A stretch of DNA of 64,000 nt from the NCBI RefSeq assembly GCF_050920415.1, contig NZ_CP169309.1; one strand, written 5' to 3'. Under the pieces are notes generated by a model. It searched no databases. It saw only the letters and a program-made list of their open reading frames with translations, and was not told the DNA's origin. Numbering within the stretch: the stretch's first letter is position 1; the number at the start of each line of letters is the position of its first letter. This document shows, piece by piece, positions 15,124 through 15,428 of the stretch. Source of the stretch: Escherichia coli. Lineage in GTDB: Bacteria > Pseudomonadota > Gammaproteobacteria > Enterobacterales > Enterobacteriaceae. Position numbers and translations under genes: made by a program.

Positions 15124-15131
15124 TAACCAGA

Positions 15132-15154
15132 GGGAGCTTCGGCTCCCTTTTTTA
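15132..15154 (+). terminator. Rho-independent terminator after coat gene
   Basis: GGGAGC-TTCG-GCTCCC hairpin followed by TTTTTTAT. Confidence 0.75.
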
Positions 15155-15167
15155 TCTGGAGACAAGC

Positions 15168-15428
15168 ATGACACACATGAATTTTCGTCATGGAGACATG
15201 AAGAAATGGAAAGGCGTTGGATACGACTTTGAAATCGTGAAAGCCGAAGAGATTCAGGAATATCTGGATGCTGGTTGGTTTGCACATCCCGATGACCTTC
15301 TGAAGGACGTTGCAGAGCCAGAGCCAGAGCCAGAGCCAGAGCCAGAGCCAGAGCCAGAAGAAAAACAGCGTAAAAAGCCTGGTCGAAAACCTAAGGCGGC
15401 AGCAGATGAACCTGACAACGAAGGGTGA
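15168..15428 (+). CDS. Hypothetical protein with (Glu-Pro)7 repeat and basic C-terminal tail
   Basis: ATG after GGAGACAAGC SD, downstream of coat terminator; translation contains [14 protein letters not shown] then [11 protein letters not shown]. Confidence 0.5.
15315..15356 (+). repeat. Perfect hexanucleotide tandem repeat (GAGCCA)x7
   Basis: Seven uninterrupted copies read directly from sequence; encodes the EP repeat. Confidence 0.95.

Follow-up and report, generated by a model that had tools for sequence, protein, structure and literature searches.

The question raised by this locus is whether a small open-reading frame that carries a perfect hexanucleotide repeat, lodged in the head operon of a prophage, is a real gene and, if it is, whether it is a passenger of that operon or one of its parts, and what its product might do. 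The frame, 86 codons long with seven uninterrupted copies of GAGCCA, lies in a P22-like prophage within a 64,000-nt stretch of an Escherichia coli genome (GCF_050920415.1, NZ_CP169309.1), which we refer to as the window. A sequence-only reading of the window had described it as a terminator-bounded small gene that follows the coat-gene terminator and starts at position 15129, has its own Shine-Dalgarno sequence, encodes an acidic Glu-Pro linker with a strongly basic tail behind it, and runs at its 3' end into the start of gp4 at 15406; it had proposed a recent expansion of the repeat, with possible slippage-driven variation in its length, and a product that could be a decoration protein or a DNA/RNA-binding moron. 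Positions of the features are collected in Table 1. For comparison we used 87 related loci, drawn from IMG/VR contigs, from E. coli genomes and from the records of phages.

The 86-aa open-reading frame is a genuine translated gene, and purifying selection acts strongly on its first 49 codons. Across the 87 loci, the first, second and third positions of codons 1–49 contain 4, 1 and 19 variable sites, respectively, and pN/pS over the same codons is 0.06 in the frame of the gene, compared with 1.9 and 1.1 in the two alternative frames. The gene was found in 216 of 5,426 complete E. coli genomes. By profile matching it is the E. coli-prophage orthologue of phage P22 orf69 (PHROG 1175): its residues 1–84 align to the full length of the phrog_1175 profile (1–72 of 72, E 4.3e-35), which P22 orf69 itself (NP_059631) matches at E 4.5e-31. 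The gene family as such is already known, as an uncharacterised family. In a collection of 5.8 billion proteins we recovered 338 homologues at E <= 1e-3, all of them unnamed or labelled ‘hypothetical’, and HMMER, run exhaustively over 1.84 billion cluster representatives, returned 28 clusters at E <= 0.001. Pfam and NCBIfam gave nothing real on the open-reading frame, the matches (trypanosome PARP and TonB) being compositional only. Literature searches on orf69 function found neither experiment nor paper, and searches on the WDGH domain of some relatives (see below) and on the repeat sequence found nothing relevant.

Table 1 Positions of the orf69-family gene, its parts and its prophage neighbours in the window
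Feature	Position	Strand	Basis or remark
P22-type major coat protein gene, 431 aa	13828..15123	+	Pfam PF11651 P22_CoatProtein, E 1e-165; ORF list
Terminator-like hairpin, UUCG tetraloop	15129..15153	+	Terminator scan, RNA fold
Shine-Dalgarno GGAG	15158..15161	+	6 nt 5' of the ATG at 15168; kept in related loci
Whole open-reading frame, 86 aa, P22 orf69 / phrog_1175 family	15168..15428	+	PHROG profile, homologue search
N-terminal globular domain (predicted), codons 1–49	15168..15314	+	AF2 with family alignment, pN/pS, invariant columns
(GAGCCA)7 tandem repeat, (Glu-Pro)7 linker, variable-number tandem repeat	15315..15356	+	TRF, related loci
C-terminal tail, with basic AT-hook-like core RKKPGRKPK at 15369..15395	15357..15425	+	Near-invariant in close relatives
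gp4 gene (head-tail adaptor / ‘packaged DNA stabilization’)	15406..15906	+	Pfam PF11650 P22_Tail-4, E 5e-58; frame analysis
gp10 gene	15906..17324		Downstream of gp4
Integrase gene of the P22-like prophage	29207..30400	minus	Adjoins tRNA-Arg(CCT)
tRNA-Arg(CCT)	30526..30600		Beside the prophage integrase gene

The border between the coat gene and the small gene is marked by the hairpin AGAGGGAGC-TTCG-GCTCCCTTT (15129–15150), in which the stem is formed by 15129–15137 and 15142–15150, the loop by 15138–15141, and a run of six T residues occupies 15148–15153. The hairpin has a predicted RNA folding energy of -18 kcal/mol (z = -2.6) and is kept across the 87 related loci, with variants falling in the loop or yielding G.U pairs, and the records of P22, Sf6 and lambda have a stem-loop annotated at the equivalent place; nothing in 14500–16000 matched Rfam. 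Position 15129, formerly taken as the start of the gene, is the first base of this hairpin, and the open-reading frame begins only at 15168. Nor is the gene bounded by terminators, as had been claimed: only its 5' side is flanked by a hairpin, whilst on the 3' side the gene continues straight into gp4, with which it shares 23 nt. In a consensus scan no sigma-70-like promoter was found in the 45-nt gap between the coat gene and the open-reading frame (15124–15167), and no terminator-like site between the open-reading frame and gp4. The gene is transcribed within the late operon, 3' of the coat-gene hairpin, and on this consensus scan has no promoter of its own. The remaining structural points of the sequence-only reading (the 86-aa frame behind the coat-gene terminator with its own Shine-Dalgarno sequence, the seven repeats with linker and tail, the overlap with gp4) were borne out.

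The same arrangement recurs in relatives. In all relatives examined, down to 36% identity, the gene lies between a P22-type coat gene and gp4, and three distant homologues from metagenomic or genomic sequences (36–42% identity) each sit between P22_CoatProtein and P22_Tail-4 genes. In P22, gene 5 is followed by an annotated stem-loop and then by orf69, whose sequence overlaps that of gene 4, whilst epsilon34 gene 6 and Proteus phage gp6 (an 85-aa version) occupy the coat-to-gp4 slot and align with the open-reading frame of the window. No P22-type module that we inspected has the slot empty; occupancy is not sporadic, and in the window, as in the relatives examined, the gene is on the same strand as coat and gp4 and tightly packed against them. 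The orf69-family gene belongs to the P22-type head module as a fixed member with conserved synteny.

These observations bear directly on the proposal that the gene is a moron or lysogenic-conversion gene, that is, one expressed independently from the prophage and directed at the host, such as a factor that binds the nucleoid or RNA. A small gene 3' of a terminator-like hairpin, with a tail that looks nucleic-acid-binding, is what such a proposal expects, and the N-domain cassettes that are exchanged between otherwise identical head modules (see below) amount to moron-like mosaicism; however, the gene overlaps or abuts gp4 in all relatives examined, and its slot is filled in all P22-type modules examined. 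As the consensus scan found it to have neither a promoter nor a terminator of its own, and as its synteny from coat to gp4 is strict, we do not class the 86-aa gene as a moron, and consider an independently expressed, host-directed factor unlikely.

The seven perfect GAGCCA units form codons 50–63 of the gene, in frame. TRF reports the tract as 15313–15358, with a period of 6, 7.7 copies and a 100% match, an independent repeat search agrees, and in 64 kb of random sequence the expected number of such tracts is ~1e-17. The number of units differs greatly between genomes: in the 216 E. coli genomes the stretch matched by a 351-nt query measures between 315 and 507 nt, which implies 1–33 units. 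The sequences that we fetched contain perfect arrays in intact open-reading frames, with 2 units, 7 (as in the window), 8 (IME10 and APC_JM3.2), 11 (L087), 24 (strain GPEC1446), 29 (strain ECONIH6) and 33 units (strain 98195). Some alleles include point-mutated units, namely GAT-CCA (Asp-Pro), GAG-TCA (Glu-Ser), GAG-CAA (Glu-Gln), GAG-ACA (Glu-Thr) and GAG-CTA (Glu-Leu), and the mutated units are at times re-amplified. A repeat_region is already marked in the orf69-family gene of the APC_JM3.2 GenBank record.

The tempo of this variation can be read from the flanks. We compared 17 locus pairs that match perfectly over 819 flanking nt, and 53% of them carry different numbers of units (e.g. 33 vs. 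29, 4 vs. 11 and 3 vs. 6), so copy number changes faster than point substitutions accumulate. Near-clonal genomes share the same span (AHM8C212RI and AHM8C160RI; strains H1/H5/H6; both E. coli W records), and the array is therefore stable over short timescales. The comparison of copy number among related prophages thus upholds the slippage-driven length variation that had been suspected. The claim of a recent expansion survives in part: copy number is volatile, but the Glu-Pro linker itself is, on the family consensus (EPEPEPE, acidic and Pro-rich; alignment A1), ancestral to the orf69 family, and copy number alone is volatile.

As the unit is 6 nt long, slippage does not shift the frame, and the outcome is length polymorphism, not ON/OFF phase variation. 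Reading frame and normal stop are kept in 87 of the 88 alleles examined, the exception (L022) being a stop-codon point mutation that adds 8 aa. A phase-variable contingency locus was accordingly considered and rejected, the repeat being internal to the open-reading frame and its unit changes leaving the frame intact. The repeat acts like any coding variable-number tandem repeat in a linker; its polymorphism is striking and its mechanism ordinary. In the literature we found no report of the 1–33-unit polymorphism, none of a family-wide three-module architecture with an AT-hook-like tail, and none of strict coat-to-gp4 synteny across distant relatives. We regard the statements on identity, architecture and repeat variation, taken together, as nearly certain.

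GAGCCA has no stop codon in any frame, and this property bears on two other open frames at the locus. A minus-strand open-reading frame at 14919–15575 (218 aa), which reads (WL)n across the repeat, was rejected as an artefact of it. The second is the frame of gp4: in 84 of 87 loci it stays open across the repeat, which it reads as (SQ)n, beginning at 15304, where the annotators of IME10 placed their gp4 start. It could be taken to mean that ribosomes undergo a programmed +1 frameshift within the repeat or beyond it, and so add the N-domain and linker to the N-terminus of gp4, lengthening the adaptor. With a repeat that lacks stops, however, an open gp4 frame is expected by chance, and outside the repeat the open stretch amounts to only 20 codons; there is no recognisable +1 shift site, and none of the 338 database homologues is of fusion length. 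Such a fusion is, in our judgement, extremely improbable.

On either side of the linker lies a further module. In the N-terminal domain, residues G36, W37 and P41 are invariant and G16 and H40 nearly so in two alignments (A1, of 20 diverse family members, and A3). AlphaFold2 run with the family alignment gave pLDDT values of ~88–90 for residues 1–46 and of 50–60 for linker and tail, values consistent with disorder, the Glu-Pro run being modelled as low-confidence coil, whilst the model from the single sequence was poor (pLDDT 59). The predicted elements of the domain are a beta-hairpin (2–14, 17–25), a helix (29–34) and a short helix (43–46), and fold and motifs are kept down to ~30% identity. 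A Foldseek search of the N-domain against the PDB returned nothing at E < 2, the family profile matched none of the sequences of all PDB chains, and Foldseek against BFVD returned uncharacterised phage proteins only; the domain is without a solved structural relative. A profile of the N-domain alone, searched against the 5.8 billion proteins, found the same family only and no informative domain fusions among the 120 matches listed. One 18-column piece of it (strand, helix and Gly-Trp; ‘V..EelQ.YLd.GW’) resembles C-terminal repeat units of two other proteins, a GIY-YIG/NUMOD3 group-I-intron-endonuclease-like protein and a second repeat protein (phmmer E 6e-5 and 6e-4), and against the repeat units of the GIY-YIG endonuclease-like protein it scores an hhalign probability of 95% (E 2e-8). 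The motif is short, and by this resemblance hints at, rather than proves, a nucleic-acid-associated module.

The suggestion that the product is a decoration protein can be set against the same searches. A minor or flexible virion component, whether a decoration or an internal DNA-associated protein, on or in the head, would suit the location in the head gene cluster, the acidic/basic composition and the AT-hook-like tail. The family profile, with P22 orf69 included, nevertheless matches no chain in any PDB entry, some two-thirds of the protein are predicted to be disordered or a small domain, and nothing else pointed towards a location in the virion. The orf69 product is not known to be among the catalogued P22 virion proteins, which also counts against it. 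The decoration protein thus lost its footing, and we think a virion component of any such kind improbable.

One E. coli prophage shows how freely the N-terminal module is exchanged. In strain OkiPb01675 the coat protein is 99.3% and gp4 98.2% identical to those of the window, and between them lies an allele whose N-domain shares 36% identity with that of the window and whose last 26 residues are 100% identical. This allele consists of the N-domain, then a WDGH domain, four EP units and the tail. The N-terminal cassette has been exchanged between the hairpin and the EP repeat, and the linker region is a recombination joint as well. The swapped N-domain stands beside a near-identical coat and gp4 and so shows no evidence of being co-adapted, allele by allele, to one or the other, which weakens, without excluding, a specific structural partnership with coat or gp4.

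The third module is the tail, in which alignment A1 shows a basic stretch followed by a short acidic end. Its AT-hook-like core reads KKPGRKPK in the window, with Lys between Arg and Pro in place of the canonical GRP, and PRKGRKPK in P22, whilst distant homologues have the canonical RGRP core at their tails (KRRGRPPK, RRGRPPK, KRGRPPK and KRRGRPS). Judged by these motifs, nucleic-acid binding by the tail is plausible, and of the proposed DNA/RNA-binding moron it is the moron half that falls. The whole protein has a net charge of -10 with a basic patch of +5/+6, which speaks against avid DNA binding unless the tail works locally.

The tail codons also contain the Shine-Dalgarno sequence of gp4, and together with the overlap of the two genes this allows a reading in which the upstream frame is a translational device that brings ribosomes past the hairpin to the gp4 start, the peptide and its repeat being of little importance. 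Synonymous diversity in the 87 loci agrees with it in part, as pS is 0.039 in the tail vs. 0.156 in the N-domain, which suggests nucleotide-level constraint on the tail. Against it, the pN/pS of the N-domain reflects strong selection at the level of the protein, whose fold and motifs persist in highly diverged relatives, and the tail motif is retained in loci where the gene does not overlap gp4, so that the tail is conserved as protein and not merely as the ribosome-binding site of gp4. We consider it quite unlikely that the gene is in essence a translational device.

Known systems resemble the gene to differing degrees. P22 orf69 shares the slot order (coat gene, stem-loop, orf69, gene 4), the N-domain motif (..GW..HP..LL), the basic tail (KGRKPKA..) and the end-to-end match to phrog_1175; however, its linker is short and acidic (PVEADDVKP) with no tandem repeat, whereas the E. 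coli lineage has a GAGCCA array of 1–33 units. Gene 6 of epsilon34 and Orf-186 of ST64T (phrog_3769, WDGH-domain protein) share the slot, a homologous N-domain and the tail type, and in an epsilon34-type E. coli version the (EP)4 linker is followed by a tail 100% identical to that of the window; epsilon34 gene 6 differs in having a WDGH domain (PF25311) of ~100 aa between N-domain and linker and an N-domain that is ~36% identical. Gene 6 of Sf6 and hkbT of HK620 (phrog_3251) also lie after an annotated ‘t coat’ terminator and before a gp4 homologue, and the 61-aa Sf6 protein has a basic tail (SKRGRKAADNG), yet it belongs to a different PHROG and lacks a Glu-Pro linker. Homology of Sf6 gene 6 to the orf69 family was rejected, as just 7 tail columns align and there is no significant overall profile similarity; with its different PHROG, it is a positional analogue only.

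In lambda, the gene order is E, a UUCG hairpin, a Shine-Dalgarno sequence, FI (‘DNA packaging chaperone’) and FII, and gpFI likewise consists of two modules joined by an acidic flexible linker. The domains themselves differ, though, and gpFI has neither an AT-hook-like tail nor a tandem repeat. Homology to gpFI was rejected (hhalign probability 0.5%), and since there is no sequence similarity the likeness is an analogy of position and architecture, not membership of one family.

Resemblances of composition reach further afield. The spacer of TonB, (Glu-Pro)n and then (Lys-Pro)n, shows the same alternation of Glu and Pro followed by a Lys/Pro-rich basic stretch, and gave the weak NCBIfam TonB matches to residues 47–77 of the open-reading frame. 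TonB is, however, an unrelated protein of another compartment, at the DNA level its repeat is no uninterrupted tandem array, and no such variation is known for it; the resemblance is compositional and not one of homology. The Glu-Pro repeats of TonB have been described as polyproline-II rods (PMC10771500). The tail, for its part, resembles the AT-hook of eukaryotic HMGA and the RGR motifs of bacterial H-NS and Lsr2, which are also short basic peptides of the Gly-Arg-Pro type with Lys/Arg flanks and an acidic region nearby; some family members have the exact RGRP core, from which the copy in the window (PGRKPK) differs.

These parts can be assembled into a proposal. The protein consists of three modules: a globular N-domain of ~46 residues, an acidic Glu-Pro spacer and a short basic AT-hook-like tail. 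By analogy with TonB, the spacer may form an extended polyproline-II-like rod, and replication slippage adds or removes whole GAGCCA units whilst leaving the frame intact; at 3.1 Å per residue, fully extended, 1–33 units would correspond to about 0.6 to 20 nm. If the tail contacts DNA, as its motif suggests, and the N-domain binds a partner, the protein would link that partner to DNA, and would presumably act as a non-structural helper in DNA packaging or head completion. A spacer whose length may vary ~30-fold is tolerated as a tether would be and not as a precise ruler would be, and this tolerance of any length suggests a tether. The role in packaging or head completion is proposed because of the fixed synteny with the coat and ‘packaged DNA stabilization’ genes and because of the lambda parallel, on which the orf69-family protein may be a positional counterpart of the packaging chaperone gpFI. 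Against this role, classical P22 genetics is not known to have found an essential gene at the orf69 position.

We hold the parts of this proposal with unequal confidence. That the gene is a P22 orf69 orthologue and late-operon accessory of the head module, whose product is a three-module tether with a slippage-variable spacer and helps in packaging or head completion, is the joint reading that we favour, by a little over an even chance. A function of the orf69-family protein as a packaging tether, taken by itself, is a tentative suggestion. Its boldest form, in which the orf69 family would be an unrecognised counterpart of gpFI in short-tailed phages, with the AT-hook-like tail on DNA, the N-domain on capsid, portal or terminase and a hypermutable, adjustable spacer between them, strikes us as a long shot.

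An unnamed E. coli prophage open-reading frame is now placed in the P22 orf69 family, one of the constant components of the P22-type head module, and the family gains a testable architecture of globular domain, Glu-Pro rod and AT-hook-like tail. The GAGCCA repeat is a source of recurring annotation errors and a possible typing marker for P22-like prophages in E. coli, and its natural series of 1–33 Glu-Pro units is a ready-made experiment on spacer length vs. function. Were the spacer indeed adjustable, prophage populations would harbour heritable differences in tether reach from <1 nm to ~20 nm, and these would affect packaging or DNA retention; were the analogy to gpFI to hold, the assembly pathway of P22, otherwise very complete, would have one of its gaps closed.

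A replacement within the gene was found in L097, a locus of E. coli OkiPb01675, where the flanking coat gene and gp4 share 99.3% and 98.2% identity with the window, and the 26 C-terminal residues that follow the linker, here (EP)4, are 100% identical. The N-domain shares only 36% identity with that of the window, and a WDGH domain (PF25311) comes after it. The locus is thus a cassette swap, its junctions falling at the hairpin/Shine-Dalgarno on one side and at the EP repeat on the other. WDGH-type alleles of this kind made up about 10 of the 60 sampled E. coli matches.

The arrangement upstream has a parallel in the lambda E-FI region (L096), which runs in the same order as the window, with a capsid gene, a hairpin, a Shine-Dalgarno and a small accessory gene, and the two hairpins have a UUCG tetraloop in common. 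The core of the orf69 N-domain is itself shared with a module of ~35 aa ('..K.V..eELQ.YLd.GW..G') which occurs in 4-5 tandem copies in two repeat proteins, a 428-aa GIY-YIG/NUMOD3 endonuclease-like protein (P0140) and a 196-aa protein (P0147); this module has no Pfam coverage.

Annotation errors at the IME10, ECONIH6 and APC_JM3.2 loci are linked to the repeat. Misannotation also extends to names: homologs appear in some database entries as 'dihydrolipoamide acetyltransferase', and gp4 has been called 'recombinase RmuC'.

Elsewhere in the window, a tandem repeat (GCCTGATGCGACGCTT...GCGTCTTATCAGGCCTAC) is, judged by its sequence, apparently an intergenic REP/BIME element of the E. coli host chromosome, and the tRNA-Arg(CCT) at the prophage end is likely the attachment site.

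Coordinates of the features discussed, local to each source sequence
Feature	Source	Coordinates	Description
Codon 5 of the ORF	window	15180..15182	AAT
A-rich run in tail codons	window	15369..15377	CGT AAA AAG
Prophage end	window	29207..30600	integrase-sized ORF and tRNA-Arg(CCT)
Integrase-sized ORF	window	29207..30400, minus strand	397 aa, adjoins tRNA-Arg(CCT)
tRNA-Arg(CCT)	window	30526..30600	beside integrase-sized ORF
Tandem repeat	window	53065..53241	94-bp unit, 1.9 copies, 96% match
Cassette-swapped allele	L097, NZ_AP042478.1	1568..2173	identity comparison with window
E-FI intergenic hairpin	lambda (L096), NC_001416	1462..1479	ATGGCCC-TTCG-GGGCCAT
IME10	L001, NC_019501	1708..2313	ORF left out; gene 4 start placed upstream in (SQ)n reading of repeat
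ECONIH6	L008	369..614	intact 29-unit allele labelled truncated pseudogene by PGAP
APC_JM3.2	L002	1813..2313	repeat-linked annotation error

At L022 (IMGVR_UViG_2529292726_000015) a TGA-to-GGA mutation of the stop codon adds eight residues (GFSSCGIT) by letting the ORF read on into gp4 sequence, and the same extension is present in the database protein P0046. Another type of duplication within the gene is seen in the 93-aa E. coli protein P0010, where a 13-residue segment closing the N-domain is present twice in tandem. Separately, the tail codons of the window ORF include an A-rich AAA-AAG run, at which a hypothetical -1 slip would reach a stop within 7 codons, with loss of the basic tail.

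The window copy also differs at residue 5, which is Asn (MTHMNFRHG) and is Ile in all close homologs seen (MTHMIFRHG), the aligned position being hydrophobic in most distant homologs. This non-synonymous change, private to the window copy, lies within the first beta-strand of the N-domain and may be mildly damaging.
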